Source: an uncultured Oscillospiraceae bacterium
GTDB taxonomy: Bacteria; Bacillota; Clostridia; Peptostreptococcales; Anaerovoracaceae
Reading direction: 5' to 3'
Assembly: GCA_964613315.1 (NCBI GenBank)
Contig: CAZTHD010000001.1
Location: 1-34,601, forward strand
DNA length: 34,601 nt
Part shown: piece after piece, positions 2,583-23,814 of the stretch
How the letters are laid out: the number at the start of each line of letters is the position of its first letter
Numbering within the stretch: position 1 is the first letter of the stretch
Position numbers and translations under genes: made by a program
The notes under the pieces: model-generated
Database searches by the model: none
Told to the model about the DNA's origin: nothing
The model's input: only the letters and a program-made list of their open reading frames with translations

Positions 2583-2584
2583 GT

Positions 2585-8444: not shown

Positions 8445-8525
8445 GCAATCCTTTAGGCAGCAGGGGATAGACCCACCCAATTCACCCTGGTAAAAAATAC
8501 ATGTCGACATTTTTGGATTTTAGTA

Positions 8526-8892: not shown

Positions 8893-8907
8893 AAGGAGAG
8901 TGAGGCG

Positions 8908-9102: not shown

Positions 9103-9243
9103 TAAAAACTAAATCAGCGGCAGAAAGACGGGAAGGCCGGGATGAAACAGAGCCTATGCTAAGTCCTTTTCCAGATCGTCTGACCGTGCAGCTATAAAAA
9201 ATGCTGCGAACATGACCGGTTGGTTTGACCAGACATACGTGAG

Positions 9244-9316
9244 AGGCCGCCGGCAGCGCTTATGCGCCATTGCTTTTGCTTTGGCGCATGGGACTGCCGC
9301 GCGGCCTTTTTGTTTT
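9244..9316 (+). terminator. Strong compound hairpin terminator/attenuator upstream of the sigma-like gene
   Basis: Outer stem aggccgccggcag (9244-9256) / ctgccgCgcggcct (9294-9307, one bulge), inner stem atgcgcca / tggcgcat, then tttttgtttt. Confidence 0.75.
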
Positions 9317-9354
9317 ACCCAGCCGGAGAAAAACAAAAGGGGTTTAGGAGATAA

Positions 9355-9909
9355 ATGAAAGAAAAAAAGATAAAAAGCCTTGAAGGCTACGGGGAGTTCA
9401 GGGAAATGTGTTTCCCTTTTCTCCTTGAGGAGGAATATCCCGGATGGACGGGAGAGGAAAAGTGGGGGATCGTAACAGATCTTAGCGAGGATGCGCTCCT
9501 TGAGGAGTATCCGAAGATAATGGAGGCTCTTTCTCCCTATCTGATGCTTCCTTCCGGATACGGGGAGATCAGAAGGGAATACGAAAACAATGAAAGAAGA
9601 AGTAGAAGAGCAAAGGAGAGCGAAAGCCTCTTCGGATACGACGAAGATACGGAGGTCTGTCATCCGGCGCTTGTATCAGAAGATTTTACACAGGAGCTTG
9701 CGGACAGGGAGCTTCTTAAAGAAGCCTTTGCCTGCCTTACGGGGATTCAGAAAGAAAGAGTGTATAAGCATTATTTCCTTGGCATGAGCCTTAAGGAGAT
9801 CGCGGAAAGCGAAGGAGAAGGAGCGAGCAAAAACGCAGTATGGGAAAGCATTCGCACTGCTCTTAAAAAAATGAGAGACTTCATTGAAGGATTCGGAGGG
9901 GAAATATGA
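9355..9909 (+). CDS. Sigma-70 region-4-like HTH protein (Tn916 Orf7-type regulator)
   Basis: C-terminal LTGIQKERVYKHYFLGMSLKEIAESEGEGASKNAVWESIRTALKKMRDF resembles sigma region 4 / LuxR-type HTH. It sits upstream of xis-int, as in Tn916-family elements. Confidence 0.6.
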   Translation: MKEKKIKSLEGYGEFREMCFPFLLEEEYPGWTGEEKWGIVTDLSEDALLEEYPKIMEALSPYLMLPSGYGEIRREYENNERRSRRAKESESLFGYDEDTEVCHPALVSEDFTQELADRELLKEAFACLTGIQKERVYKHYFLGMSLKEIAESEGEGASKNAVWESIRTALKKMRDFIEGFGGEI

Positions 9910-10442
9910 GGAGAGAGAGAAATATAAGAAGAGGGGAGATCTGGCTCTGCGACTTAGGAGAGGAAAGGGGCAGCATCCAGGGAGGCATGAGGCCCGTGCT
10001 TGTAATAGAATCGGAAAGGATCTCAAGGAATGCTCCCACCGTCATAGTTGCCGCGATCACCTCGGTTATAAAAAAGGCTTATATGCCGTCCCATGTTATA
10101 CTGCCCGATTCCGCAGGGCTTGACAGAACCTCCATGGTCATGCTTGAGCAGGTCATGACTGTAAACAAGTATGATCTTGTAAGTTATATAGGCTTCCTTA
10201 CGGATCAGAAGACCTGGAGGATCATAAACAGCGGCCTTAAGAAAGTTTTCGGCATGTGGATATACAGAGAAGGAAGCCCTGCGGATATACGCTGCCTGTG
10301 CCCAAGTTGCGCACATGACTATATGGAGGCCGGCTACACAATAAAGCGCCTTGATCCCTTTGCACATTCAAAGGAGCGCTGCACAAAGTGCGAAGGTTTC
10401 GGCTACGACTATATCGTTTACGATCCGAGGCAGAAGGTATAG
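9906..10442 (+). CDS. PemK/MazF-family toxin-like protein with C-terminal Cys4 zinc-ribbon extension
   Basis: RRGEIWLCDLGEERGSIQGGMRPVLVIESERI..TVIVAAITS is the MazF pattern. The tail carries CLCPSC...CTKCEG. ATGA overlap with the sigma-like gene. Confidence 0.75.
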   Translation: MRRERNIRRGEIWLCDLGEERGSIQGGMRPVLVIESERISRNAPTVIVAAITSVIKKAYMPSHVILPDSAGLDRTSMVMLEQVMTVNKYDLVSYIGFLTDQKTWRIINSGLKKVFGMWIYREGSPADIRCLCPSCAHDYMEAGYTIKRLDPFAHSKERCTKCEGFGYDYIVYDPRQKV

Positions 10443-10451
10443 GAGGACGTC

Positions 10452-10661
10452 ATGGATATGGTAAATGAAATGTACGTTCCTCTCTGGGAAAGAAGCCTTC
10501 TTACTGTGGAGGAGGCAGCGAGCTATTTCGGGATAGGAAGAGACAAGATCAAGGAGATATCAAACGACGACAGGTGTCCCTTCGTACTGTGGGTAGGCAC
10601 AAAGAGGATGATCAAGAGAAAAAAGTTCGAGGAATACCTCGAAGAAATGTACTCGATATAA
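10452..10661 (+). CDS. xis: Tn916-type excisionase (Xis)
   Basis: VPLWERSLLTVEEAASYFGIGRDKIKEI...MIKRKKFEEYL resembles Tn916 Xis (IPIWER..LTIEEASKYFRIG...IKRKQFEK, from memory). Lies immediately upstream of int. Confidence 0.8.
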   Translation: MDMVNEMYVPLWERSLLTVEEAASYFGIGRDKIKEISNDDRCPFVLWVGTKRMIKRKKFEEYLEEMYSI

Positions 10662-10673
10662 GGTTTGTCAAGT

Positions 10674-10705
10674 GTGCGATTTATAGAATTTTGGGTAAAT
10701 CGCAC
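10674..10705. promoter_or_regulatory. Perfect 10-bp inverted repeat between xis and int
   Basis: gtgcgattta (10674-10683) / taaatcgcac (10696-10705) with 12-nt spacer. A second hairpin ttcctgcag/ctgcaggaa follows at ~10724-10746. Confidence 0.4.
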
Positions 10706-10783
10706 ATTTGAAAAGGATTCTCTTTTCCTGCAGAATACTGCAGGAAGAGAGATCCCAGATGCTTAGAAAGGGGAGGATTAAGA

Positions 10784-12016
10784 ATGGGACAGAAAAGAAT
10801 GGCCGGAAGGCAGGTCCTTAAAAAAGGCGAGGGCCAAAGATCAAACGGTACGTTTTACTACCGCTGGGTGGACAGAAAAGGCGAACGCCGGGTGATCTAC
10901 TCAAAGACCCTTACGGCTTTAAGGGAACGTGAGAAGGAAATGAATAAAGACCTTGCCGACGGGATCAAGTACGAGGCAAGGTATACCACGGTAAACGATA
11001 TGTATAAGGCATGGAAAGATATCAAACGGGGCCTTCGAGACAGCACCTTCATGAACTATACGTATATGTACGAGACCTTTGTTGAGCCGACCTTCGGAAG
11101 GTCGCGCATAAGCCAGGTGAAAAAGTCGGATGTGAAGCACTTCTACAATACCCTTGCGGACGAAAGGAATCTGAAAGCGGCAACTATTGACAGTATACAC
11201 ACCGTCATCCATCAGGTGTTCGAGATGGCAGTCGAGGATATGTATATCAGAGCCAATCCGGCAGACAACGCTCTCAAGGAACTCAAGAGATCCCATGTGT
11301 ATAAGTCTGAAAAAAGAAGGGGACTTACACTGCCGGAGCAGGAGCTGCTTCTAAGCTTTCTTAAGAAATCAAAATACGTGCACTGGTATCCTGTGATCGC
11401 GGTGATGGCCGGTACGGGAATGAGAGTGGGAGAAGTGACAGGCCTTCGCTGGCAGGACATAGATCTTGATAAGGGGATCATAGACGTAAACCACTCCCTC
11501 ATCTATTACAACCACAGGGAGGAAGGGTACAGGAACGGAAGCTATTTCAACGTCCATGAGCCTAAGACCGAAGCCGGCATAAGGCAGGTTCCTATGATCG
11601 GGTTTGTAAAGGAAGCCTTCCTTATGGAAAGGGAATACCAGAAGGAACTTGGTATAACGTGCAATTCCGTTATTGACGGTTACACGGACTTCATATTCCT
11701 TAACCGCAACGGCGAAGTGTACGGGTATTCGCAGATCAACAAGGCGATAAAGAGGATCATAAGGGACTGCAATGACGAGCAGTTCCTTAAAAGTGAGACC
11801 CCGGATGTTCTGCTTCCGAACTTCAGCTGCCATAATCTCCGTCACACCTTCACGACCAGGATGTGCGAAGCCGGAGTGAATATAAAGCTGATGCAGGACA
11901 TACTGGGGCATACGGATATTTCAACGACCCTGAATATCTACGCTGATGCCACAAAAGAACTGAGAGAAAAGGAGATGGAGAATCTTGAGCAGTATTTTGC
12001 GGGGATGGGAGCATGA
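10784..12016 (+). CDS. int: Tyrosine recombinase/integrase, Tn916 family
   Basis: 410 aa. TGMRVGEVTGLRWQDID, HNLRHTFTTRMCEAG, LGHTDISTTLNIYAD supply the R...HxxR...Y catalytic pattern. RBS GGGGAGGA. Confidence 0.9.
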   Translation: MGQKRMAGRQVLKKGEGQRSNGTFYYRWVDRKGERRVIYSKTLTALREREKEMNKDLADGIKYEARYTTVNDMYKAWKDIKRGLRDSTFMNYTYMYETFVEPTFGRSRISQVKKSDVKHFYNTLADERNLKAATIDSIHTVIHQVFEMAVEDMYIRANPADNALKELKRSHVYKSEKRRGLTLPEQELLLSFLKKSKYVHWYPVIAVMAGTGMRVGEVTGLRWQDIDLDKGIIDVNHSLIYYNHREEGYRNGSYFNVHEPKTEAGIRQVPMIGFVKEAFLMEREYQKELGITCNSVIDGYTDFIFLNRNGEVYGYSQINKAIKRIIRDCNDEQFLKSETPDVLLPNFSCHNLRHTFTTRMCEAGVNIKLMQDILGHTDISTTLNIYADATKELREKEMENLEQYFAGMGA

Positions 12017-13806
12017 GCTACGAAAGTATAAACAGTGAAGACGCAAGGACCTTCATACCGGCAAAACCTAAGATCAATCTGACCGAAAAGGACCGTTTCT
12101 TCCGGGTCTGCGCATACTGCCGCGTCTCCACGGACAACGATGAGCAGCTCACATCCTTCGAGCTTCAGCAGGCCCACTATATGCAGCTCATGCAGGATCA
12201 TCCCAACTGGGAGCTTAAGCATATCTTTGCAGACCAGGGTATTTCAGGAACCTCCCTTAAGAACCGCGACGAGTTCAATGAGATGATAGCGGCCTGCAGG
12301 AGGGGCGAATACGATCTGATCGTGACAAAGAGCGTATCCCGTTTCGCAAGAAACCTTGTGGACTGCATCTCGCTCATACGTATGCTGAAGGGCCTTGATC
12401 CGCCCGTCGGGGTGTACTTCGAGACGGACAATCTCTATACGCTTGGGGAGAATACGGAGTTCATGCTTTCCTTCCTTGCGACCTTCGCCCAGGAGGAATC
12501 GGTGAAGAAGAGCGAGGCCATGAACTGGTCCCTCCACCAGCGCTTCAAGGACGGAAAGCTTCTTACTCCCGCGCTTCTGGGCTACGACCGCCCCAGAGAC
12601 AGCGCCGGGCACTATATAAAATATGCGCCGCTGATCGTGAACGAGGAGGAGGCCAGGATAGTCCGCTTTATATATGATGCATACCTCTCCGGATGGTCCT
12701 CGGAGCAGATAGCGTCGTTTCTCAGAGACATAGAATGCAGGACAAAAAGGGGAAGCTGCGACTGGACCGCAACGTCCGTCGGATACATCCTGTCCAACGA
12801 GCGCTACTGCGGAAGCGTTCTGACCTGGAAGACATTTACGGCGGATCTTTATGAGCATAAGCATAAGAAGAACAGGCAGGACAGGGACCAGTACCTCTAC
12901 AGGGACAGGCATCCGGCTATAATCAGCGTTGAGACTTTTGAAGCGGTCCAGGTGCTTATTGAAAACAGAAAGCATCACATAAGAGGCCCCATGCCGTCCC
13001 TTCAGGTGATAGAAGAAGGGATCTTCAGGGGATACGTTCCTGTAAACCATCACTGGGTGAACGACGATCCTAATATTTATTACGACGTCTCAAATTCGGT
13101 GGCGGGAAGAGCAAGGGCAAGGACCATTGCAAAGGCTGCCTTGAGCGTCTTTGATCTTTCAGGATACCAGGTCGTGAGAAACCAGTTTACCCAGGTCAGG
13201 TATGAAGGACCTGCGATCACGGTAACAGACCGCAGGATTACCTTCAATACCTTCTGCATGAGGACTTTCGGTGACGTCGGATACATCCAGCTCCTTCTGC
13301 ATCCCGCCGAAAGAAGGATAGCGATACGTCCCTGCAGGGAGCGCGATACGCACAGCATAAGGTGGAGACCGGATCCTTCCGCTTCCGTATATCCGAAAAC
13401 CCTTTCCTGCCCCCATTTCGGGACCGCGCTGTTCAGCATAATGGGATGGGATCCTGATTACGTCTACAAGGTGCGCGGCGTATGGGCGAAAAGAGGAAAG
13501 GAACAGATAATGGTCTTCAGCCTCGGTGCAGCGGTCCCTTCAGTGCAGCTTTCAGGTGATGAGGAAACCAGGAGGAAGAGAAGGGTGGAAATGTGCCCGG
13601 AGGAGTGGGAGGACGATTTCGGGGAGGAGTTCTATGAGCACGCTCTTGACAACGGCTTCTATTACCTCTCGCCTGGATCCGGATGGCATGCCGATGCAGA
13701 AAGCATCCCGGCTCCCGGAATGGAGCAGTTCCCCGTGCCGGGCATGGATGACCTCAAGGAAACAATGATGATGCTTACAGGAGAAAGGGAGAATGAAGAT
13801 GAATGA
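12013..13806 (+). CDS. Large serine recombinase with non-canonical C-terminal domain
   Basis: CAYCRVSTDNDEQ and VTKSVSRFARN (resolvase catalytic domain), then a recombinase domain (YCGSVLTWK...). No CxxC zinc-ribbon follows. Start ATG overlaps the int stop (ATGA). Confidence 0.9.
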   Translation: MSYESINSEDARTFIPAKPKINLTEKDRFFRVCAYCRVSTDNDEQLTSFELQQAHYMQLMQDHPNWELKHIFADQGISGTSLKNRDEFNEMIAACRRGEYDLIVTKSVSRFARNLVDCISLIRMLKGLDPPVGVYFETDNLYTLGENTEFMLSFLATFAQEESVKKSEAMNWSLHQRFKDGKLLTPALLGYDRPRDSAGHYIKYAPLIVNEEEARIVRFIYDAYLSGWSSEQIASFLRDIECRTKRGSCDWTATSVGYILSNERYCGSVLTWKTFTADLYEHKHKKNRQDRDQYLYRDRHPAIISVETFEAVQVLIENRKHHIRGPMPSLQVIEEGIFRGYVPVNHHWVNDDPNIYYDVSNSVAGRARARTIAKAALSVFDLSGYQVVRNQFTQVRYEGPAITVTDRRITFNTFCMRTFGDVGYIQLLLHPAERRIAIRPCRERDTHSIRWRPDPSASVYPKTLSCPHFGTALFSIMGWDPDYVYKVRGVWAKRGKEQIMVFSLGAAVPSVQLSGDEETRRKRRVEMCPEEWEDDFGEEFYEHALDNGFYYLSPGSGWHADAESIPAPGMEQFPVPGMDDLKETMMMLTGERENEDE

Positions 13807-14404
13807 CAGCGAAGCGGAAAGGATAATCGAGGGAGCAAGGATCATAACTAATGCGGACGATGAACCGGAGATCATTGCGGACCTTGCAGGATATCAGGTC
13901 ACAAAGGCGGAGCTCTTTGCACACTCAAGGGAACCGGCCGTGACCATATGGGAATCGAGGATCAAGTTCAATATGGCGTGCCTTAGGAAGTTTCCGGGAG
14001 TCACACATATCCAGATACTGATACATCCGGAGCAGAAAAGACTGATTATAAGGCCATGCGAAGCCGATGCTCCGGATTCGCTCCGCTGGGCAAAAGGCGG
14101 CGGAGAAAAGGAGCTTTCAAACAGGGATCTTCGCTGCAAGATCTTTGCGGCAAAGGTCTTCGAGCTCATGGGCTGGGATCCCCAGTATCACTACAAAATG
14201 ATGGGAAAGCCCGCCGTCTACAACGGGGAGATACTCTTTCTTTTCAAGCTCACGGATTTCGAGCTGTTTGTAAGCAACGGAAGGAAGAGAAAATCATACC
14301 TTCCTGAGGAGTGGAGAGACTATTTCGGAATACCTGCAGATCAGCACGAGGAGTCGTACAAGGTCGATCTTGCGGATGGATATATAACGACTGATAAAGC
14401 ATAG
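13793..14404 (+). CDS. Stand-alone paralog 1 of the serine-recombinase C-terminal domain
   Basis: 203 aa, aligning with recombinase residues ~378-545 (e.g. PAVTIWESRIKFNMACLRKFPGVTHIQILIHPEQKRLIIRPC vs PAITVTDRRITFNTFCMRTFGDVGYIQLLLHPAERRIAIRPC). 14-nt overlap with the recombinase gene. Confidence 0.75.
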   Translation: MKMNDSEAERIIEGARIITNADDEPEIIADLAGYQVTKAELFAHSREPAVTIWESRIKFNMACLRKFPGVTHIQILIHPEQKRLIIRPCEADAPDSLRWAKGGGEKELSNRDLRCKIFAAKVFELMGWDPQYHYKMMGKPAVYNGEILFLFKLTDFELFVSNGRKRKSYLPEEWRDYFGIPADQHEESYKVDLADGYITTDKA

Positions 14405-14415
14405 GAGGTTAAACG

Positions 14416-14877
14416 ATGGATCAGATAAACAGCATCAAAGAAATAAGTATGGACGGATTTCAGGTGGTGAGCGGCAGCATGTTCCGGCACAGGACTCAGT
14501 TTACTTCGCCGACGGCAACTATCTGGCCGGACTACATCGGCTTCAACAAAAATGCGCTTCTTTCTCTTAACAACTGCGAGAGGGTGCGCATAGAGGTAAA
14601 TACGGCAAAGCGCTGCATTCTCGTGGTTCCGGTCACGGAAAGTGACAGGGACGGAATCAGATGGGCAAAAAACACCCAGATCCCGGCGCAGCGGAAGATG
14701 TGGTGCGAGGCGTTTGCAGCCCAGCTTTACGACATATGGGAGCTTGACAGTCAGATGGCTTACAAAGCTACCGGAAAACCTGTTTCAGCGGACGGAAAGA
14801 TAATGCTGCTCTTTGATTTCAGCAATCCGGACTGCTGGATGATACACAAGAAGGAGAAGAAGGAAGATGGCAAGTGA
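14416..14877 (+). CDS. Stand-alone paralog 2 of the same domain
   Basis: 153 aa. PTATIWPDYIGFNKNALLSL..RVRIEVNTAKRCILVVPV..DGIRWAK..WELDSQMAYKATGKP shows the same blocks in the same order. Confidence 0.7.
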   Translation: MDQINSIKEISMDGFQVVSGSMFRHRTQFTSPTATIWPDYIGFNKNALLSLNNCERVRIEVNTAKRCILVVPVTESDRDGIRWAKNTQIPAQRKMWCEAFAAQLYDIWELDSQMAYKATGKPVSADGKIMLLFDFSNPDCWMIHKKEKKEDGK

Positions 14878-15214
14878 TATCACGATCTCTTTCTATCTTA
14901 AGGATACAAGGATCTGCATCTATTCAGCCGTGCTTAAGGGAATAGGGAGCCCCTCAAGGATATGTTTCATGATAAGTGATAACGGTGACAACCTTCTCGT
15001 ATCACCTTATGAGAAGAAGGATCTTAAATCCCACAGCGTTCCTGCAAGGGTATACGCAGGAGAGGACTCCATGAGAGTGAATAGCTACGTTCTCTGCCGT
15101 ATCATAGCGGAGTTGCACGGATGGGATCTGAACCGTTCCTACAGGGTCCCGGGAGAGATCATCCCGGAAAGAGAAGTTGCAGTGTTTTTTCTGAAGGAAG
15201 CAAAGGTGATCTGA
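14867..15214 (+). CDS. Stand-alone paralog 3 (most divergent) of the same domain
   Basis: 115 aa. ICFMISDNGDNLLVSPY and LHGWDLNRSYRVPGE correspond to the IQILIHP..LIIRP and MGWDP.Y.YK..G blocks. 11-nt overlap with the previous gene. Confidence 0.55.
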   Translation: MASDITISFYLKDTRICIYSAVLKGIGSPSRICFMISDNGDNLLVSPYEKKDLKSHSVPARVYAGEDSMRVNSYVLCRIIAELHGWDLNRSYRVPGEIIPEREVAVFFLKEAKVI

Positions 15215-15217
15215 ATT

Positions 15218-15445
15218 ATGCAGGCCTATTATATTAAAATATTGAAAAATCACATCAGGTATTACCGTGAGATAGCGGGGCTGTCTCAGTCGGAACTGGC
15301 CCGCGCGATCGGCGTTTCTCAGCAGTCTGTAAACAAATATGAGCACGGTGTGATGAATCCGGGCCTTGCCACTGCGGTAAGGCTGTCGGATCTGTTCGAC
15401 GTATCCGTAAGGGATCTGTTTGAGTTTGAAGAGGGGTATTACTGA
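15218..15445 (+). CDS. XRE-family HTH transcriptional regulator
   Basis: 75 aa. IRYYREIAGLSQSELARAIGVSQQSVNKYEHGVMNPGLATAVRLSDLFDVSVRDLF. Confidence 0.8.
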   Translation: MQAYYIKILKNHIRYYREIAGLSQSELARAIGVSQQSVNKYEHGVMNPGLATAVRLSDLFDVSVRDLFEFEEGYY

Positions 15446-15487
15446 AAAGGCATATCAGCTGTATATAATCTGCAGACAACCGGGAGA

Positions 15488-15509
15488 GCAGTACAAAATT
15501 TTGTACTGC
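15488..15509. promoter_or_regulatory. Perfect 22-bp palindrome (operator or weak terminator)
   Basis: GCAGTACAAAATTTTGTACTGC, self-complementary, followed by ctttctg. Lies between the XRE gene and the 15592 ORF. Confidence 0.4.
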
Positions 15510-15591
15510 CTTTCTGATAGAATGCATACTGGAAGGAGGCCTTAAGGCTTCCGCAGCAGAGAATTAATATCAGGACCGGGAGGGAATCGGA

Positions 15592-15894
15592 ATGGCAACA
15601 GTATACTGCAGATCGACAGGACACAACGTCCACAGCTTTTATATCAGGACCGGAAGAGAGGAATTCTTCCTCTTCAGCCAGACATTCAGGAAAGGGGTCC
15701 ACGAGTACTACGCAGGCGGCGTAAACTTAAGCGGAGCCATGGACTGCTCCAGGGGAAGACACGACAGTCAGCTCCTCAGGACCATGAACAAGATCCCGAA
15801 ATACATAGCATATGTGGAGAAGGAATACGATACCGTAATACTGGACAGGACCAGAAAGAACAGGGAAAAGCACAGACTTGCCCTGGCAAACTGA
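15592..15894 (+). CDS. Hypothetical protein
   Basis: 100-aa ORF with RBS GGGAGGGA. No motif recognised. Confidence 0.5.
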   Translation: MATVYCRSTGHNVHSFYIRTGREEFFLFSQTFRKGVHEYYAGGVNLSGAMDCSRGRHDSQLLRTMNKIPKYIAYVEKEYDTVILDRTRKNREKHRLALAN

Positions 15895-15912
15895 TAAGGA
15901 TAAGAAAGGGGA

Positions 15913-16338
15913 TTGATATATATGAATAAGGTTATGCTTATAGGAAGACTTACTAAGGATCCGGAGGTCAGGTATACCAATGCGTCACAGACGGCAGTGG
16001 CAAGATTCTCTCTTGCCATAGACAGAGGGAAGAAAGCAAACGGAGAAGACGCCGGAACGGACTTTCCCACCGTAGTTGCATTCGGAAAGACTGCGGAACT
16101 CATTGAGAAATATGTATCAAAGGGGCAGCAGATTGCAGTCGAGGGAAGAATTCAGACAGGTTCTTACGAACGGGATGGCGTAAAACACTACACCACCGAT
16201 GTAGTTGCCGAAAGGGTTGAGTTCCTCGGCAAAAAGGAAAGCACGGACGATCTTCCGAAAGGGCTTGGGAAGACGGAAGATGCAAGCGATGCCCTCAGTG
16301 TGTTCTCGAGTATTACGGATGACGATATACCGTTCTGA
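15913..16338 (+). CDS. ssb: Single-stranded DNA-binding protein
   Basis: MNKVMLIGRLTKDPEVRYT...VARFSLA OB-fold N-terminus and the acidic C-terminal tail DDDIPF characteristic of bacterial SSB. Confidence 0.9.
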   Translation: MIYMNKVMLIGRLTKDPEVRYTNASQTAVARFSLAIDRGKKANGEDAGTDFPTVVAFGKTAELIEKYVSKGQQIAVEGRIQTGSYERDGVKHYTTDVVAERVEFLGKKESTDDLPKGLGKTEDASDALSVFSSITDDDIPF

Positions 16339-16354
16339 AGGGAGGTTTAGGAAG

Positions 16355-16525
16355 ATGAGTTTACTCTTTTTCACAAAGGAAAGATACAAAGACCCTGAGT
16401 ATTACAAGGCTCTGGGCGAATGCGATTATGACTGCCTTGCATGCAGGCATCTGGATGTCGACTGTGAGGGGGATGAACTGGAGGATCCGGAACTCTTCCA
16501 GGAACTGTTTGATGAAGACTTGTAA
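16355..16525 (+). CDS. Small acidic Cys-containing protein
   Basis: 56 aa from the ATG at 16355 (RBS GGGAGG). CDYDCLACRHLDVDCEGDELEDPELFQELFDEDL. The longer track ORF (16205) overlaps ssb. Confidence 0.5.
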   Translation: MSLLFFTKERYKDPEYYKALGECDYDCLACRHLDVDCEGDELEDPELFQELFDEDL

Positions 16526-16548
16526 TGGGAAGAATGAGAGGGGTAGAT

Positions 16549-16761
16549 ATGAAAAAAGCAACAAAAACGGAACAGAAGCAGATGAGGGACTTTGCACTCA
16601 TATTCGGTAAGGATTCATACCTCAGCATGGCTGATGACGGAGCCAGACTTATTTCCACCCTTGCCGGTGCGGAGGGTCACACTATTATTGCCAGGTACGA
16701 TTTGAAGAATGATATGGTAGAGAGTCTCATCCGAGAAAGAGATGATATCGGCGCAAGATAG
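16549..16761 (+). CDS. Hypothetical protein
   Basis: In-frame ATG at 16549 is preceded by GAGAGGGG (the track ORF starts at 16525). No motif recognised. Confidence 0.45.
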   Translation: MKKATKTEQKQMRDFALIFGKDSYLSMADDGARLISTLAGAEGHTIIARYDLKNDMVESLIRERDDIGAR

Positions 16762-16931
16762 GAATCGTGAATGGTGGTATACTATTATTGAAATTGATTT
16801 TACAAAGGAATCATAGGAGAATGATGATCGCCCGCTCATATGGCGTTAAACCTGGAGTATGTGAAAGGAAGCGATGTTAGAAATCCGAGTAGCAATAAAT
16901 ATCAGCACTATGGTATCGCTTTCCGGTGCTG

Positions 16932-16940
16932 TGGTATAAT
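16932..16940 (+). promoter_or_regulatory. Extended -10 element (TGgTATAAT)
   Basis: TGGTATAAT at 16932-16940, about 30 nt upstream of the ATG at 16972. Confidence 0.4.
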
Positions 16941-16971
16941 AAAGCGAAGTACCGACAGAGAGGAATGTAAG

Positions 16972-17604
16972 ATGCCAATATATGAACTGGACTATGGAAA
17001 AGAAGTAGACTTTTCTCGCAAGATGGCTAAGGTCGTAACTAAAGCCCAGGAAGAGCTCCCTGAAGATGTTTCTTCCAAGTTATTCTGTGGAACCAACATT
17101 TTAGTGGACTATTCGTGCTTTGAAAAAGAACAGATCATCCTTATGGTCGTTTACGATAATTGGGATGAGCAGTATTCATTAAAAAAGAAAGGTTTGGATT
17201 TAGCAAAGAAAACTTTAACTCCAATTATCAAGGATGTTTTCGGTGAGAAATATCGTCTCATGGCTATGTTTGCGAACAATAAGTACAGGATGTGGATTCC
17301 CAAGTATTACCTAATTAATAAATCAGGTCATAAGGAACTGGCTGCAGAGCTTCATGACCATGTATTCAGGTACTACAAGGGTAAATGGCATAAAACAAAG
17401 GATCAGGACTATATCAGTAATTACTTATTCGGTATTGATCCAACCCAACCGGAAAGTTTAGAGAATTTCGGTAATCAGGAAATACAGGATATGATTAGAG
17501 AATTATCCAAAAAGGAAGCAGAAGTGTTTTTAAATGGCAAAATCGATGAAGACTGGTTCTACGACGAGTTTTTGAAATCATATGAAAAGGAGGAGTATTT
17601 GTAA
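16972..17604 (+). CDS. Hypothetical protein (orphan, 210 aa)
   Basis: ATG at 16972 has RBS AGAGAGGA and lies downstream of the extended -10; the track ORF start 16840 lies upstream of it. No motif recognised. Confidence 0.6.
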   Translation: MPIYELDYGKEVDFSRKMAKVVTKAQEELPEDVSSKLFCGTNILVDYSCFEKEQIILMVVYDNWDEQYSLKKKGLDLAKKTLTPIIKDVFGEKYRLMAMFANNKYRMWIPKYYLINKSGHKELAAELHDHVFRYYKGKWHKTKDQDYISNYLFGIDPTQPESLENFGNQEIQDMIRELSKKEAEVFLNGKIDEDWFYDEFLKSYEKEEYL

Positions 17605-17831
17605 TGTCAGATGAAGAGATTTTGATTGCGTATTTTGGTGGCAGACCGCAGTGGACTGGTAATAAGCTCTACAAGATTGGCGATATGCGTGTGGAGTATT
17701 CTGGCGCTAAGCTTTATAAGGTTGGAGGCGCAAGAATCGAGTATTCGGGCAACAAACTGTATAAGATCAACGGAGAGCGTGTTGAGTGGAGCGGGACTAA
17801 GGTAACAAAAATAGGCAACAGAAGGATGTAA
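17604..17831 (+). CDS. Small protein made of four tandem ~15-residue repeats
   Basis: GNKLYKIGDMRVEYS / GAKLYKVGGARIEYS / GNKLYKINGERVEWS / GTKVTKIGNRRM. Start overlaps the upstream stop (TAATG). Confidence 0.6.
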   Translation: MSDEEILIAYFGGRPQWTGNKLYKIGDMRVEYSGAKLYKVGGARIEYSGNKLYKINGERVEWSGTKVTKIGNRRM

Positions 17832-17865
17832 CGTGTTTTTGTAAAAAGTGCAGATGTGCGATTAA

Positions 17866-17897
17866 CATAAAAATGAGGCTATTGCCTCATTTTTATG
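17866..17897. terminator. Bidirectional rho-independent terminator
   Basis: cataaaaatgaggc tatt gcctcatttttatg, a perfect 14-bp inverted repeat with an A-run before and T-run after. Lies between convergent genes. Confidence 0.8.
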
Positions 17898-17902
17898 TTA
17901 GT

Positions 17903-18769
17903 TTAATTCAGGTTATTACCGTGCTCGTTTCTGGAATCAAAGACTTTTTTCCAGTAGTTTTCCCTATCTAATATATATTTGGAATCGTTACTGAAAAAAA
18001 CCTCTAATAAAGAAAACTGGAAATACTGCGCATAATTATCGTTTTCCTGCAAAAGATTAATCAGCCCTTTATTATTCCCGGTTCCACCGGTATAAACATA
18101 GGTTGACCATCTTTGCCAAATACCTTCTTCCCCATATGCGCTTCCGATATAGAGTTTTCCTGTTGATGTGTCTGTTATGACATAAATACCATAAACATTA
18201 GAAAGGGCTTGTCTCCAATTATCTGTATTTTGTGTAACGAGAAGTTCAAGTTCTTTAAATGAAAGTCGGACTTTATCATAGCCGGGAAATACTTTATTAG
18301 TCTTAATGTAAGGCTTATTTAGTATCTCTATCACTTCAATAGTTTCTATATTCTGAATATCGATTTTTGCCTGTTTGTCTCCCTGGTGTTTCTGATATTT
18401 AATTATGAGCCTTTCCTTGTAGCATGAGAAACGGTCAAGTTCCTGGAGGTCATATAGCTCTGCTCCATCACCTCTATTTATGATCCCGTTTACTTTGAAC
18501 GCTCCAAGAAAAAGCCAATTGTCCCACTTTTTATCTTGATCTAGTCGTATGAATTGCAGGCAATAATCGGTATTGATGACTCTAAAGCTCTTTTTTCCTG
18601 GGCTTTTTTTCCATGATATGTGTTCTATCAAACGTGCGTGGTTCTCACTGTTAAAAGAATATACACCGTCTTTTGACTCTGTCGCATTGTTTAAGCACAA
18701 AGTCCAGTCATTGTATTCTTCCTGGTTCAGGTTTAATATATCCGACAGATGTATACATTTGGTACTCAT
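17903..18769 (-). CDS. GIY-YIG nuclease (I-TevI-like catalytic domain at the C-terminus) with ~190-aa unknown N-terminal domain
   Basis: VYGIYVITDTSTGKLYIGSAYGEEGIWQRWSTY ... LDRENYWKKVFDSRNEHGNNLN gives GIY-x10-YIG plus the conserved Arg, Glu and Asn. Confidence 0.8.
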   Translation of the reverse strand: MSTKCIHLSDILNLNQEEYNDWTLCLNNATESKDGVYSFNSENHARLIEHISWKKSPGKKSFRVINTDYCLQFIRLDQDKKWDNWLFLGAFKVNGIINRGDGAELYDLQELDRFSCYKERLIIKYQKHQGDKQAKIDIQNIETIEVIEILNKPYIKTNKVFPGYDKVRLSFKELELLVTQNTDNWRQALSNVYGIYVITDTSTGKLYIGSAYGEEGIWQRWSTYVYTGGTGNNKGLINLLQENDNYAQYFQFSLLEVFFSNDSKYILDRENYWKKVFDSRNEHGNNLN

Positions 18770-18808
18770 TTTTCATTCCTCCGGTTATAGTACTTCGAGT
18801 TGTTATAG

Positions 18809-19396
18809 TTAATCTTTTGTGTAAATCCATTGCTCAGGTCCTGTATCTCTCATCAGAGTAGCGGGATCTTTGAACTTCGTTAGAAATAATGCTGTCATAT
18901 ACATATCTCCGATACATCCGGAAAAGTGTAATGAAAAAATAATCCCTATTACCAGATACCAGCCTTGATCAACTCGGTATAGCCAGACCAAGAGTGGAAT
19001 CAGGATGACTGAAAAGAGTGTGAGCGGTGCGACCAGAGATTTAAGAGCAGTATTCCTATAGGTGTATATGTCCGGCACTCCGCAAAAGGCTGCGGACCAG
19101 GTTATACCGAAGCGCAGTTTCTCCTTTGTCAAAATCTTATATACTGCTCCGTGAGTAAGTTCGTGAAGGATGATATAAGCAATCATCGATATCAGCAAAA
19201 CCAGATTGTACTTCATTAGTTTACCCAAATTTATGGTGATGTTATCCAGAGTCTTGAAAAAGAAGAAGATAAGTGCTGCTGCAATAATAAGAGAACCCAG
19301 TGTAAATAAGATCCCGGTTTTCTTGTTGGCAGCATCGATGTGATACGCTTCCTTATATCCATCAGGTATTGTTCGTTCAAATGTGATATGTTCCAT
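18809..19396 (-). CDS. Multi-pass membrane zincin-like peptidase (DUF3267-like)
   Basis: 195 aa with several hydrophobic helices and HELTHG (HExxH) adjacent to a helix. 39 nt upstream of the GIY-YIG gene on the same strand. Confidence 0.65.
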   Translation of the reverse strand: MEHITFERTIPDGYKEAYHIDAANKKTGILFTLGSLIIAAALIFFFFKTLDNITINLGKLMKYNLVLLISMIAYIILHELTHGAVYKILTKEKLRFGITWSAAFCGVPDIYTYRNTALKSLVAPLTLFSVILIPLLVWLYRVDQGWYLVIGIIFSLHFSGCIGDMYMTALFLTKFKDPATLMRDTGPEQWIYTKD

Positions 19397-19695
19397 AATC
19401 TAATCTATGTCCTACAAAAATTCTGAAATCATTACAGTATGGTATTGTATCACATACTGTCAAATGATATCATAGTCATGTTCTGGATATGGACAATCTT
19501 TCGAAGTAATTCAATAATGTGTATCATTTGTCCCGTTTATGCAAGTGGGCGGTCAAGTGAAAAGCCTTATAAAAACTATTTTGACTGATTGGACCGTAAC
19601 GGTTGAAGTGATGCAATGCGTTGCATTTTCTTTAATAACCGGAGCAGGTCTTTTTTCGTGTCCGGAATGAGAATAATCATAACGGAGGCAATAGT

Positions 19696-20580
19696 ATGAA
19701 AACAAAAAAACCATTAAAACCAAATGAGATTGGTGCTATCCGCAAGACGATTGCGGAAAAAACAGGAGTGAATCTGAAGTCGTATCTTATAGAGCAGGCT
19801 TTTACCAGGAGCTCATACTCCAGGAGATACGGTGGTGGAAATAATGAGAACTTTGAGTACATAGGAGACACTTTTCTCTCTTTCTGTGTAGTGCGCCTGC
19901 TTTGTAATCATTACGGCACTATCCATTCAGATGATGAGGAATGTATTTACACTTTTCGTGCACACGAAAAGGATTTTACAACCCTTAAGAGCAGACTTGT
20001 CAGTAACCATACACTTGCAGAGATTATAGATGAATGGGATTTGTGTCAGTATCTGATTGTCGGGCAGTCTGACATTGATAATGAGATCGATAAGCAGGAG
20101 AAAATAAAAGCAGATCTTCTCGAGGCGATAATCGGTGCCATGGCTATTCAGCTTCAGTGGAATGTAGAAAGAATGGAAGAAGTGATTTCGAATATTCTGC
20201 CGGTTGAAGAGTATATTCTGGATTATGAAAAGACCCAGTTTAGGCCGCCTGAGTATAGTGCTGAGAACGCAATAAACACATTGAAGGAACTGGCAGAACA
20301 CGAAAGATGTTCGTTCCCGCAGTATGATATAGATGGGCCTGAGAACCTTGGATATAACGATAATGGTGATCCCATTTGGGCATGCCACTGTACCGTTCAG
20401 AACTATGGTTTATCGAAAGTTGTATTTGCACACTCAAAAAAGGATGCAAAAAAATATGCAGCGTATCTGGTTCTGTGCGACATGTTTGAAATGCCAAATG
20501 AATATGGTCCAAGTAAAAGCCTGGCATGCTGGCAATGGGATGGAAACAGACTGGATATAAATACATCCAGGGACTTCTAA
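19696..20580 (+). CDS. RNase III family protein (catalytic domain + dsRBD), divergent accessory copy
   Basis: LIEQAFTRSSYS, NENFEYIGDTFL (cf. NERLEFLGDA), KADLLEAIIGAMAI (cf. DxFEAxxGA). C-terminal dsRBD-like INTLKELAE...AHSKKDAKKYAAYLVL. At 294 aa it is longer than a typical Rnc. Confidence 0.8.
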   Translation: MKTKKPLKPNEIGAIRKTIAEKTGVNLKSYLIEQAFTRSSYSRRYGGGNNENFEYIGDTFLSFCVVRLLCNHYGTIHSDDEECIYTFRAHEKDFTTLKSRLVSNHTLAEIIDEWDLCQYLIVGQSDIDNEIDKQEKIKADLLEAIIGAMAIQLQWNVERMEEVISNILPVEEYILDYEKTQFRPPEYSAENAINTLKELAEHERCSFPQYDIDGPENLGYNDNGDPIWACHCTVQNYGLSKVVFAHSKKDAKKYAAYLVLCDMFEMPNEYGPSKSLACWQWDGNRLDINTSRDF

Positions 20581-20641
20581 ACAATGGCCAGGAACAAATA
20601 ACAGTATCGAAAACCAGAGTGCTCGCATGTGGCCGGACGAA

Positions 20642-20674
20642 GGGTAGTACAAATTTAAGTACTACCCTTTTGTT
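20642..20674 (+). terminator. Rho-independent terminator after the RNase III gene
   Basis: gggtagtac / gtactaccc stem followed by ttttgtt. Confidence 0.75.
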
Positions 20675-20755
20675 ATAATGTATGATGAAAGACATGCCCC
20701 TTGACAACTGAATATAGTAAAAATATCACTTAAGTCCTATTAGAGAGGTAAATCA

Positions 20756-21106
20756 ATGGAGTTAAAAGAAGTTCCGAATTATATTCTCGATTCTCAGACA
20801 AAAAGCGGGTCTCGTATGACATCATTTGCCGTAGATCTGACAGAAGCCGTTCTGGATTTCCAGAATTGGGTTGAAGAGGCAAACTTAACTGAAAAAGAGA
20901 TGTGGTATACAGATGTGTTTGAATTTATGTCGAAAAAGCATATAGCCACAATACGTATTAATGAAAATGGACTGGCAATAATAATCCCTGCCCCTGAAAA
21001 ATCTAGGGTGAAACTGTTTTCAAGAAATCGATTTGTTGCAAGAATGAAGGGCGAATTGAAAATACGAGGGAAAGATAAGTCTGATAGTAGGAAAGAATGG
21101 AAATAA
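20756..21106 (+). CDS. Hypothetical protein
   Basis: 116-aa ORF with RBS AGAGAGG. No motif recognised. Confidence 0.5.
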   Translation: MELKEVPNYILDSQTKSGSRMTSFAVDLTEAVLDFQNWVEEANLTEKEMWYTDVFEFMSKKHIATIRINENGLAIIIPAPEKSRVKLFSRNRFVARMKGELKIRGKDKSDSRKEWK

Positions 21107-21117
21107 TAAGGTATATC

Positions 21118-21154
21118 ATGCTATTATGCAATATGTGGGATTGCATAATAGCAT
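21118..21154. promoter_or_regulatory. Perfect 15-bp-stem hairpin between the 116-aa ORF and the PD-(D/E)xK ORF
   Basis: atgctattatgcaat (21118-21132) / attgcataatagcat (21140-21154) with 7-nt loop. The downstream agtgtttta is only weakly T-rich, so it could be a terminator or an operator. Confidence 0.5.
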
Positions 21155-21175
21155 AGTGTTTTATGGAGGCTAGAT

Positions 21176-21790
21176 TTGAATTATTGTTACTGTGGGCAAA
21201 TCCATAACTTTTTGAAGATTAGCGAAGATGAGTGGATGGGACAAATGTCTCGAAATCTATACGAACGATACAAAACGGCAGCCAATCAACCACTTATGGA
21301 TTCATGGAGAGACTGTTTTCAGCATCTACAAAGGGAGTTTTCAAAACTGCCGAATGACTATTTAAACCTATATATTGTTTTTGAATATGGGGTTCCTTCC
21401 GCGGATCCAAGATATGCAACTCGCCGATATCCACGAGATAGGGCAGATGTTATTATATGGGACAAAAAAACTGCACTCGTTCTTGAGTTTAAGCGTGAAC
21501 AGTATTTGCCTAAAAATGATTACCGAGAATATGAAAGGCAATTACACAATTACTACAAAATGATTAATGAGGTTCACAGATATGGAAAGAATCAGAAGGT
21601 GGAATCTGCCTTTGTTTTCACAAACTGTCAAGACGAGATGAATATCATCCCAAGGGAGTGGGATTATGGTGGAACATATTATATATGCTCACAAAGCGGT
21701 GTATCTGATTTGATATGTAAAATTTTTGATTGTGTCGAGACCATGTCGGCAAAAGAGTTTTCTATGTGGATTGGGTATTGTTTTAATTAG
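21176..21790 (+). CDS. Stand-alone PD-(D/E)xK nuclease-fold protein resembling the N-terminal module of DUF2075/NERD-type proteins
   Basis: IVFEYGVP...RADVIIWDKKTALVLEFKRE gives E...D...ExK. TTG start is preceded by GGAGG at 6 nt. Confidence 0.5.
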   Translation: MNYCYCGQIHNFLKISEDEWMGQMSRNLYERYKTAANQPLMDSWRDCFQHLQREFSKLPNDYLNLYIVFEYGVPSADPRYATRRYPRDRADVIIWDKKTALVLEFKREQYLPKNDYREYERQLHNYYKMINEVHRYGKNQKVESAFVFTNCQDEMNIIPREWDYGGTYYICSQSGVSDLICKIFDCVETMSAKEFSMWIGYCFN

Positions 21791-21928
21791 ATATTATTTG
21801 TTTGTAGGACTCTTAAGACATAGTGTTTTGAAGTCATGGTAAGATCTGTATGAACGTTGGTTTGTTACTGTTAGGAAACCTTCATTAAAGGTAATAACTC
21901 AAAAAAAACACCAAAAGTTATTTATCAA

Positions 21929-21937
21929 TGGTATAAT
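21929..21937 (+). promoter_or_regulatory. Extended -10 element (TGgTATAAT)
   Basis: TGGTATAAT about 43 nt upstream of the ATG at 21980. Confidence 0.4.
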
Positions 21938-21979
21938 TAGTAAAAATATAAATTAAGATTGATGATAGGAGGAGTCATT

Positions 21980-22813
21980 ATGCCAAAAAGTTGGAAGACT
22001 GCTGAAGAAAAGGAAGAAAGCCCAAAGAAAAAAGGGATATTATGGAAAATATTATTAGCGTTGGTTGTTATTGGTTTACTTGGTTCTACGATGAATAAGG
22101 ATCCGAAGGATTCGAATTCTTCTTCCGGAAAAAGCAACACAGATAATACTGCTAGTGTTATCGTTGCAGATTTTAGCACAATGACATTGGATGAAATTAC
22201 TAAGTGGGCTGAAGATAATAATGTTACTGTCAAGTTCGTACAAGAGTATTCAGAATCAGTACCAGATGGAGAGTATATTAAACAGAACAAAGATGTAAAC
22301 GCTACGGTAAAACCTGGAACAACAATTTCAGTTTCATACTCAATGGGTCCCGAACCATCAACAGAGTATAAAAATGCATTAAAGCGAGCTGAAACCTATT
22401 CAAAAACATTGCACATGTCAAAAGAAGGGATATACCAGCAGCTTGTTTCAGAATATGGAGAAGGATTTCCGGCAGATGCTGCAAAATGGGCAATTGAGCA
22501 TCTTAATGCAGATTACAAATACAATGCACTAAAAAAGGCAGAATCCTATTCAAATTCTATGTATATGTCAAAGAAAGGCATATACAATCAGTTGATTTCT
22601 GCTTATGGCGAAAATTTCACTAAAGAAGAAGCACAATATGCAATTGATAATTTAGATGCAGATTACAATAAAAATGCACTTATGAAAGCAAAGACATATG
22701 AGAGCAGTATGAATATGTCGAGGAGTGCTATTTATGATCAACTAGTGTCGGAATATGGTGAGGCATTTACTCCGGAAGAAGCACAATATGCTATTGATCA
22801 TTTGAGTGACTGA
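21980..22813 (+). CDS. Membrane-anchored PASTA-like domain protein with three Ltp-family (superinfection-exclusion type) repeats
   Basis: TM segment ILWKILLALVVIGLLG and a PASTA-like VADFSTMTLDEITKWAEDNNVTVKF..VKPGTTISVSYSMG. Three repeats of YKNALKRAETYSKTLHMSKEGIYQQLVSEYGEGF..EAQYAIDHL, the Ltp pattern. Confidence 0.75.
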   Translation: MPKSWKTAEEKEESPKKKGILWKILLALVVIGLLGSTMNKDPKDSNSSSGKSNTDNTASVIVADFSTMTLDEITKWAEDNNVTVKFVQEYSESVPDGEYIKQNKDVNATVKPGTTISVSYSMGPEPSTEYKNALKRAETYSKTLHMSKEGIYQQLVSEYGEGFPADAAKWAIEHLNADYKYNALKKAESYSNSMYMSKKGIYNQLISAYGENFTKEEAQYAIDNLDADYNKNALMKAKTYESSMNMSRSAIYDQLVSEYGEAFTPEEAQYAIDHLSD

Positions 22814-22874
22814 TTTAGTGTTTCGTTTAATCATTTATACGCTAATCAACAGGTAATTGGAATATAGCATTGTT

Positions 22875-22900
22875 GGCCCTGCATTGTGCAGGGCCTTTTT
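22875..22900 (+). terminator. Rho-independent terminator
   Basis: ggccctgca ttg tgcagggcc followed by ttttt. Confidence 0.8.
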
Positions 22901-22901
22901 G

Positions 22902-22910
22902 TGATATAAT
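22902..22910 (+). promoter_or_regulatory. Extended -10 element (TGaTATAAT)
   Basis: Lies immediately after the terminator and upstream of the nucleotidyltransferase gene. Confidence 0.4.
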
Positions 22911-22962
22911 GAAGAGAGTTTTTTCCAGGAGAAGAAAGCAATATGTGTTAGCTAGTATAGGA

Positions 22963-23748
22963 ATGGGCATACAAGAAGAAATAGGTGAAAAACTTAAAGA
23001 GATAGAGGAAAAAGAAAACGTCAAGATCCTTTACTGTGTAGAGTCGGGAAGCAGAGCATGGGGCTTTGCTTCACCGGACAGCGATTATGATGTCCGTTTC
23101 ATCTATGTGCATCAGGCGGATTGGTACCTCAAGCTCGAAAAGACAAGAGATGTTATAGAGTGGCAGCTTGATGATGTCCTCGACATAAACGGATGGGATT
23201 TTAAAAAGACCCTGACGCTTCTTCACTCTTCCAACCCTACTATTTTCGAGTGGAACCAGTCACCGATAGTGTACAAGACAACTTCGGAGTGGAAGGTTGT
23301 TTCCGACATTATAAATAACTACTTCGTACAGAAGTCGGGGCTGCATCACTATCTGAGTACTGCTAAGAGCAATTACAGGGAGTATCTTAAAGGAGATATC
23401 GTCAGGGTGAAAAAGTATTTTTATGTGTTAAGGCCTATTTTGGCATGCAAATGGATACTTAAGAATCAGACACCGCCCCCTATGCTTTTTTCGGAATTGA
23501 CAGAGGCTTGTCTTGAAGAAGAAATGAAAGAACCTGTGCGGGAACTCCTAAGGATAAAAACGGAGACTCCCGAGATCGGCGAGGCAAAGAGGATAGACGT
23601 TATAAACGAATATATTGACAGAACTATCCCGGAGATCGAAAAGCTCATCGAGGACCTTCCTGCAGAACAAACTGCAGGATGGGAAGATCTCGATGCTGTA
23701 TTTATGGACATATTGAAGGGATTGAGATCATCGTGGCGACAACAGTAA
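22963..23748 (+). CDS. Pol-beta superfamily nucleotidyltransferase (RlaP-like)
   Basis: VKILYCVESGSRAWGFASPDSDYDVRFIYV gives the GS...DxD signature. I chose the ATG at 22963 because the track ORF start (22870) lies inside the upstream terminator. Confidence 0.7.
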   Translation: MGIQEEIGEKLKEIEEKENVKILYCVESGSRAWGFASPDSDYDVRFIYVHQADWYLKLEKTRDVIEWQLDDVLDINGWDFKKTLTLLHSSNPTIFEWNQSPIVYKTTSEWKVVSDIINNYFVQKSGLHHYLSTAKSNYREYLKGDIVRVKKYFYVLRPILACKWILKNQTPPPMLFSELTEACLEEEMKEPVRELLRIKTETPEIGEAKRIDVINEYIDRTIPEIEKLIEDLPAEQTAGWEDLDAVFMDILKGLRSSWRQQ

Positions 23749-23814
23749 TAACAAGAAAAATATATGATTTGGAATTAGAAGTATACAGTGCTCAATAGTA
23801 TTATTTGAAAAATT

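Follow-up and report, generated by a model that had tools for sequence, protein, structure and literature searches.

Ribonuclease III (RNase III) is usually treated as the product of a single housekeeping gene, rnc. In Escherichia coli the enzyme acts on the leader of its own rnc transcript, with negative feedback as the outcome, and this leader is listed in Rfam as rncO. Two further systems come close to the gene described here: Synechococcus PCC 7002, for which multiple RNase III homologues in one bacterium are reported in PMC5829567; and SPCSV (sweet potato chlorotic stunt virus), whose CSR3 protein is presented in PMC7280029 and PMC8315922 as a virus-encoded class-1 RNase III and suppressor of RNA silencing. 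Here, an RNase III gene of 294 amino acids (aa) is described from an uncultured Oscillospiraceae bacterium (NCBI GenBank assembly GCA_964613315.1, contig CAZTHD010000001.1, positions 1 to 34,601 of the forward strand; this whole stretch of 34,601 nucleotides (nt) is called the window). It encodes an accessory class-1 RNase III that was acquired by horizontal transfer and falls in a distinct, metagenome-rich clade without a name so far. It probably moves as a self-contained single-gene cassette with its own structured leader, and its neighbours are probably not its partners. At the level of listings and abstracts, neither a bacterial RNase III family carried by prophages or mobile elements nor such a leader was found described in the literature. 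Paralogs and autoregulation of RNase III are already known; the clade, its cargo-like distribution and its dedicated leader RNA look new.

The accessory RNase III and its clade

The gene and the layout of its product are as follows.

19696-20580, + strand: RNase III open reading frame (ORF), 294 aa, start codon at 19696
Protein layout (accessory class-1 RNase III): helical catalytic domain; beta-hairpin insert at about residues 75-86; double-stranded RNA-binding domain (dsRBD) at residues 189-264; conserved C-terminal tail of about 30 aa

A preliminary description of the window had read this ORF as an RNase III with intact catalytic signatures and a dsRBD, more divergent than housekeeping Rnc, and the reading holds on both counts. 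Pfam matches are PF14622 (4.1e-16) and PF00636 (5.7e-15); the signatures NENFEYIGD and DLLEAIIGA lie at residues 50-58 and 140-148, and E51, E54, D58, D140 and E143 are invariant in an alignment of 21 family members. Pfam dsrm has no match to the 294-aa copy; PF00035 is carried by some of its relatives. A dsRBD is assigned because three results agree on it: the TIGR02191 alignment spans residues 24-257; the profile of the 21 members aligns with Thermotoga maritima RNase III (PDB 1o0w) over 8-258, from the N-terminus through the dsRBD; and the AlphaFold2 (AF2) model, with a predicted local distance difference test score (pLDDT) of 89.7 and low confidence in the insert at about 75-86, has an alpha-beta-beta-beta-alpha module at 189-264. 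The catalytic signature and the dsRBD that define a class-1 RNase III are both present, and the dsRBD rules out a Mini-III. Divergence is seen in the TIGR02191 score of 76.1 bits, under the equivalog cut-off of 166.25 bits and so below the threshold for housekeeping Rnc, and in an identity of 22.8% over 193 aa to the Rnc of the same genome.

The source assembly (G000; 66.7% complete, 401 contigs) holds three RNase III-type matches: the canonical rnc, which adjoins smc on contig C20 (125 bits); the window copy; and a protein of 493 aa. The window gene is accessory because a canonical rnc stands beside smc in the same genome, on another contig; the preliminary description had proposed a paralog and named a sole RNase III gene as the finding that would speak against it. 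Canonical rnc is present in all 31 genomes searched (30 relatives and the source genome), and the window type in none of the 30 relatives, the source genome alone having one. It is absent at E<=1e-30 from 400 other genomes of the order, and a search of the class with the family profile gave a clear member in one of 398 other scored genomes (G558, 4.6e-113), where a canonical rnc is present as well.

In a maximum-likelihood tree (quick search, LG+G4; 30 canonical and 95 family rows), a check that the preliminary description had called for, the canonical sequences form one clade (30 rows; support of 100 in the approximate likelihood ratio test, SH-aLRT) and the 95 family rows lie beyond a long branch. 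The canonical clade does not include the window copy, which groups within a 29-row subclade of the separate family (SH-aLRT 100); most of the prophage-linked members belong to the 64-row sister group. Protein clusters that match the RNase III at E<=1e-3 number 463, the best 120 of them being mostly 288-306 aa long. The few named ones, from metagenome-assembled genomes of Clostridia and Erysipelotrichaceae, bear the label 'ribonuclease III family protein' or 'hypothetical protein'.

Several relatives depart from this pattern. The third RNase III-type gene of the source genome (contig C200; L003:853-2334, - strand) encodes 493 aa, in which a long extension at the N-terminus precedes the RNase III domain and Pfam dsrm. 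Its branch in the tree lies between those of the canonical clade and the accessory family; the leader model described below has no match upstream of it, and a 283-aa Cys-rich ORF without a Pfam match follows it directly. Intermediate relatives, in frames of 336-397 aa and with matches of 1e-39 to 1e-47 to the family profile, occur at loci L160-L163 (G470, G724, G478, G752). The family gene is interrupted in L081, as pieces of 107 aa and 155 aa with three ORFs between them, and is split into two adjacent frames in L076 and L077; these three may be decaying copies or insertion targets.

The leader of the RNase III gene

Upstream of the ORF, a leader of about 200 nt is made up, in the order given by RNAalifold, of a hairpin, a GACC/GGTC stem with a run of six T, a helix pairing with the Shine-Dalgarno (SD) sequence, and the start codon. 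The elements of the leader, with the promoter-like site ahead of it and the hairpin that follows the gene, are listed here.

19445-19473, + strand: promoter-like site; -35 TTGTAT (19445-19450), 17-nt spacer, TG-extended -10 TATCAT (19468-19473)
19501-19584, + strand: leader hairpin; 5 helices with 29 base pairs in all and a GCAA (GNRA) tetraloop at the tip; covariance-model match 19496-19592
19591-19656, + strand: terminator-like leader element; stem at about 19591-19650 with a conserved GACC...GGTC base and a variable apex; T6 at 19651-19656
19658-19689, + strand: putative SD-masking helix over GGAGG (19684-19688), from the minimum free energy fold
20639-20675, + strand: terminator-like hairpin after the RNase III gene; arms 20639-20650 and 20659-20669, U-rich sequence next

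The preliminary description had pointed to 19397-19695 as a place to look for structured RNA, and this interval does contain a conserved leader. It was aligned for the window gene and seven relatives of its subclade, whose flanks differ (ppdK/HipA-like/LexA; addAB/thi; his/PHP; VanZ/Macro-NADAR/WYL; BioY/metH; TraG/ParE). Leader DNA is 80-90% identical over about 90 nt in loci whose proteins are just 60-68% identical. The promoter-like site lies about 28 nt ahead of the hairpin, and TTGAnn/TATAAT-like hexamers are aligned with it in the 7 other family loci, in differing flanks; its action as a promoter is suggested by the match to consensus. Positions 19500-19700 fold with z = -4.03.

The same hairpin is obtained from structure-blind MAFFT alignments with RNAalifold, with 18 of 43 pairs compensated in eight loci and 14 of 27 in 16 loci from both subclades. 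In a model-fitted alignment of 50 distinct rows, 94.0% of the pairing cells are filled by pairs (41.9-55.7% in slid controls), 20 of the 29 pairs show double changes, and 184 cells are compensated (9-48 in slid controls); in 500 shuffles, not one of the five covariation measures attained its observed value. G-U pairs are frequent, which suggests an RNA on the sense strand. The hairpin forms one long rod, lacking both a multi-helix junction and any obvious pocket, and its basal half is conserved in sequence as well as in pairing. In most of the 16-locus alignment the apical loop is of GNRA type (GCAA, GCGA, GAAA, GGAA), the exception being L007 (GCCG).

Downstream parts of the leader are also shared. 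The flanks of the GACC/GGTC stem are conserved across both subclades; a run of at least five T follows the hairpin in 63 of 67 distinct leaders, at 25-68 nt (median 58), and the pattern GACC..GGTC+T is found in 54 of the 67. The SD-masking helix has double changes in three of six pairs (RNAalifold, eight sequences), weaker support than that of the hairpin.

A covariance model of the leader, R1, was built from the 8 sequences and used at E<=0.01. Of 110 family genes, 81 have a match upstream, on the gene strand in every case, and none of 38 control loci has one; the controls are 36 canonical rnc loci, the third paralog and locus L170, with R1 absent both from a first set of 31 (30 canonical rnc and the third paralog) and from 7 more of the class search (six canonical rnc). 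By source, 80 of 98 are matched at full length, at a constant distance upstream and on the gene strand, with two weak echoes on the reverse strand in addition. More distant viral loci gave one further strong match and eleven weak or cut ones, all at the homologous place; L159, a family locus found independently, is matched with 67.4 bits; and the source genome is matched once. Weak matches on the gene strand also lie upstream of three of the four intermediate relatives (L160-L163), those with frames of 381-397 aa, an indication that the leader predates the 294-aa clade. Matches were missing or cut at 19 family loci, 8 of them without enough upstream sequence and 11 with enough. Rfam has no match in the window at gathering score, rncO included; at E<=10, mir-144, mir-192 and SAM-SAH appear in 19380-19720, unrelated families at chance level that were set aside. 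A conserved, covarying leader structure is thus tied to the accessory RNase III family.

Genomic and mobile setting

Of 94 loci outside the subclade of the window, 37 have large serine recombinases at a distance of up to 5 kb, and 17 have holins (Pfam); with IMG/VR loci left aside, a recombinase or holin is present in 20 of 67. In several contigs the family gene stands between a holin and recombinases, and so lies inside a mobile element. Its neighbours in other loci include BrxA/B/C, a type I restriction endonuclease, PDC-S04, PDC-S30, Macro-NADAR (PDC-M42C), WYL regulators, and a GajA/OLD-like ATPase, its start overlapping the stop of the RNase III gene. The overlap is seen in L013 (5001-7663), a locus resembling an integrative and conjugative element (ICE), with a TraG-type coupling protein and a ParE toxin; the overlapping gene encodes a 585-aa AAA_15 ATPase of the GajA/AriA/OLD type, and the arrangement may be a two-gene variant. 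In L021, L025 and L089 (L021 at about 6094-10732), brxA, brxB and brxC of a bacteriophage exclusion (BREX) system are directly downstream of the family RNase III and a 69-aa ORF, with holin genes upstream.

The window itself looks like the cargo or defence island of an integrative element. Its cargo includes a CHAP-domain protein, a MazF-family toxin, two tyrosine integrases, a serine recombinase, a single-stranded DNA-binding protein (SSB), UzuA, Ltp and RlaP. The AT-rich setting noted at the outset is real: guanine-plus-cytosine (GC) content is 38.5% over 16.6-28.5 kb and 46.4% in the genome, about the 5th percentile of 2-kb windows. The other features are these.

1542-5925: three DNA methyltransferases (two D12-class N6-adenine, one N6_N4) and, in divergent orientation, a type II restriction endonuclease (PADLOC REase_II, 3.6e-67)
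7394-8086, + strand: T5orf172/MUG113 and DUF4357 protein (PADLOC PDC-S57, 5e-49; PD-Lambda-1 weaker)
About 8400-16600: higher-GC block (49.1%) between two AT-rich stretches
16840-17831, + strand: 254-aa ORF and 75-aa ORF with overlapping stop and start, neither with a Pfam match
17903-18769, - strand: UzuA (Uzume), a GIY-YIG protein; PADLOC model matched at full length, 2.4e-57
18809-19396, - strand: DUF3267 putative zincin, adjoining UzuA
From 21959: Ltp superinfection-exclusion lipoprotein

The higher-GC block encodes a sigma-70 region-4-like protein, a toxin of the MazF/PemK kind, the SSB, and a Tn916-type tyrosine integrase that overlaps a large serine recombinase of 597 aa; it may be a nested or separate element. 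The 254-aa ORF has a weak match to PDC-M37B (0.0012), and in the 75-aa ORF a KLYK-x-G-x-R-x-E-[YW]-SG-like unit is repeated about four times. Among contigs of four DNA runs compared with the region, fragments of the same element occur in two runs of one study, with no joints; contigs from other gut metagenomes gave only short sequences that resemble the leader or a conserved part of RlaP. A search for RNA runs with 19400-21800 returned none. In the conserved part of RlaP, at 23040-23110 within the RlaP nucleotidyltransferase gene, many diverged short matches from unrelated gut-metagenome contigs pile up over about 70 nt, probably marking a conserved active-site region.

Possible function and relation to known systems

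The cassette would run from its own promoter, through the structured leader (about 200 nt) and the ORF, to a terminator. RNase III needs roughly two helical turns of duplex in a substrate. The 29-bp leader hairpin is well over this length, which makes it a likely substrate in cis of the enzyme encoded behind it; cutting would then give negative feedback in the manner of the E. coli rnc leader, a proposal made by analogy to which we give about even chances. Such feedback could let a mobile gene hold a constant dose in any host, and the leader terminator and SD-masking helix would add a low basal output. Beyond its own leader, the enzyme might act in trans, by cutting duplex RNA in conflicts among phages, mobile elements and hosts; the genomic contexts make this a tentative suggestion, and they do not distinguish a host-protective from an element-serving role.

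Several results weigh against the gene being a mobile, self-regulated cassette. Cultured-phage records have no DNA match to 16500-23800 and three weak protein matches of 24-30% identity; PLSDB plasmids have no protein match at 1e-10; and no PADLOC model matches the RNase III. In the subclade of the window (15 loci) no recombinase or holin lies within the fetched flanks, several members stand between housekeeping genes (his, thi, metH, addAB), and mobility is deduced there from the patchy distribution, and from that alone. Eleven loci with adequate upstream sequence have no R1 match at E<=1. The covariation counts drawn from the model-fitted alignment lean toward structure; the leader transcript, the function of the terminator and the cleavage are predictions from sequence; and a leader terminator with SD masking fits a ligand- or protein-controlled attenuator equally well.

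The alternative that survives best is that the enzyme serves the mobile element, by maturing or stabilising its transcripts, by antisense-RNA control, or as a counter-defence that destroys duplex RNAs of host immunity. Many members lie at the lysis-to-integrase junction of prophage-like contigs, some between holin and recombinase genes; the 294-aa protein matches a PHROG family of unknown function (1.7e-12); and suppression of RNA silencing in the host by viral class-1 RNase III enzymes is known (PMC7280029, PMC8315922). The same junction, however, is also where cargo for defence or lysogenic conversion usually sits; in several loci the gene adjoins BREX, type I restriction or other defence candidates; and the window copy is placed among host-protective genes (UzuA, the restriction-modification system, Ltp). 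We regard service to the element as unlikely, though still a serious contender.

Somewhat less probable is that the leader is something other than the enzyme's own substrate: a riboswitch-like or protein-controlled attenuator, a separate small RNA (about 170 nt) with its 3' limit at the leader terminator, or a site for the canonical RNase III of the host. A conserved terminator-like stem with a U-run and a possible SD mask is typical of attenuators, and the sequence conservation of the basal half of the hairpin suggests specific recognition. The single long rod and the lack of an Rfam riboswitch match argue against this alternative, however, as does the occurrence of the leader next to the RNase III family only, once per genome, which ties it to the enzyme.

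An improbable but consequential extension is a single-gene innate immune module that senses double-stranded RNA (dsRNA), with the leader as built-in decoy and sensor. Cutting of its own leader would keep the enzyme low; duplexes from an infecting phage, or from convergent transcription on a mobile element, would titrate the enzyme off the leader, synthesis would rise, and the duplex RNAs of the invader would be degraded. If true, this would be a bacterial, prophage-spread counterpart of antiviral RNase III enzymes of the Drosha/Dicer type.

The preliminary description had instead joined the RNase III gene to the two ORFs that follow it, as a three-gene defence or anti-defence system combining an RNA nuclease with a DNA nuclease.

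20756-21106, + strand: orphan ORF, 116 aa; real gene uncertain
21118-21154, + strand: AT-rich hairpin between the 116-aa and 204-aa ORFs, 15-bp stem
21176-21790, + strand: stand-alone PD-(D/E)xK nuclease-fold protein, 204 aa, TTG start

In favour of such a unit, the three genes are adjacent and co-oriented, in an AT-rich island with known defence genes. Against it, the trio co-occurs in 0 of 109 fetched loci that encode RNase III relatives (2 from reference genomes, 80 from metagenomes, 27 from IMG/VR), the very outcome that the preliminary description had said would refute it: tblastn found no homologue of the 116-aa or 204-aa protein in these loci, none of the DUF3267, Ltp, RlaP, 254-aa or 75-aa ORFs, and one weak match for UzuA; and clustering of 858 neighbour ORFs gave no partner common to the whole family. 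The hairpins reported between the genes are present (stems at 20639-20669 and 21118-21154), and as terminator-like elements they part the three. The 116-aa ORF is an orphan, as had been stated: its sole match among 5.8 billion protein clusters is itself, it matches no Pfam, PHROG, NCBIfam or PADLOC family, ESM Atlas gave no usable feature match, and it shows no similarity to the ORF upstream of the stand-alone PD-(D/E)xK relative in L156. No PADLOC model matches the orphan or the RNase III, and matches to the 204-aa protein elsewhere (7 class and 6 phylum genomes) are mostly fused, in frames of about 600-720 aa; tblastn found no RNase III in the 7 class loci, where flanks are just about 1.5 kb. 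A three-gene system is therefore very unlikely. The orphan and the 204-aa protein are independent neighbours outside the RNase III cassette; to annotate them as its partners would be a mistake.

The assignment of the 204-aa protein to the PD-(D/E)xK fold, by contrast with the trio, stands as first given. E70, D91, E104 and K106 are invariant in 30 stand-alone relatives; the AF2 model (pLDDT 90.2; predicted template modelling score, pTM, 0.88) has Foldseek matches to McrC, Card1, Can2, R.BspD6I and the nuclease domains of AddAB and DdmD; and an E...D...ExK motif on a restriction-endonuclease-like fold is thus present. Its likeness to the nuclease module at the N-terminus of DUF2075-type proteins, minus the ATPase, is borne out by these folds, by a match to positions 3-169 of the 657-position PADLOC profile PDC-S41 (1.6e-11), and by the SLFN-g3 helicase domain (PF09848, formerly DUF2075) that lies C-terminal to the module in 8 of 22 relatives scanned, three of the 8 with a sub-threshold NERD match. 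The gene has no helicase or ATPase domain: its ORF ends at 21790 and Ltp starts at 21959. A word-index homologue search returned the protein itself only; an exhaustive search gave 92 relatives at E<=1e-3, many of about 200 aa and some of 590-713 aa. All 7 other matches to the module in the class search are in open frames of 658-724 aa, and one of 6 in the phylum search (400 genomes) is stand-alone (G1141, L156:1486-3533, 192 aa). That copy is followed by a frameshifted transposase of the insertion sequence family IS3, so some stand-alone modules may be truncations. A PDB sequence search with the module alignment matched only the inositol trisphosphate (IP3) receptor, which is spurious.

That the window gene is the housekeeping rnc, merely relocated, can be dismissed: it does have an RNase III domain and a dsRBD, but the canonical gene is beside smc on C20 and only 22.8% identical to it, its score is far under the TIGR02191 cut-off, and its type is missing from 30 relatives that all have the canonical gene.

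The reading that we prefer therefore remains the single-gene cassette. It implies that a separate RNase III clade behaves like mobile cargo, at prophage lysis-integrase junctions, in ICE-like islands and beside BREX and restriction systems; and the cassette offers a compact model for dosing a potentially toxic nuclease across hosts, and a candidate for a dsRNA-directed function in phage-host conflict.

Four described systems can be set beside these genes. Nhi (SERP2475), with the PDC-S41 profile, is comparable to the 204-aa protein, which corresponds to its N-terminal nuclease module in motif and fold; the DUF2075/SLFN-g3 helicase is absent from the 204-aa protein, however, and stand-alone relatives of about 200 aa exist. 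The comparison is an analogy and not a membership, because the PADLOC Nhi model did not match. According to the Nhi report (bioRxiv 10.1101/776245), its N-terminal 230 aa show 3'-5' exonuclease and nickase activity on their own, whereas the full-length protein is nearly inactive; by analogy, the free 204-aa module could be an active nuclease.

SPCSV CSR3 is likewise a small class-1 RNase III on a mobile or viral genome, but it is a plant-virus (eukaryotic) enzyme that acts on small interfering RNAs, and the likeness is one of description. Bacterial Rnc with rncO is also comparable: both are class-1 enzymes with one catalytic domain, one dsRBD, intact acidic residues and a long hairpin in their own 5' leader. 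The accessory RNase III differs in forming a separate clade under the TIGR02191 cut-off, in its patchy distribution, and in its beta-hairpin insert and C-terminal tail; its leader, unlike rncO, has no Rfam match, bears a terminator-like stem and an SD-masking helix, and is a proposed rather than an established site of cleavage. With Synechococcus PCC 7002 and Mini-III the source genome shares the possession of more than one RNase III-type gene. Mini-III lacks the dsRBD that the accessory enzyme has, and the accessory family, in contrast to both, sits at prophage ends and in defence islands, with a dedicated leader RNA.

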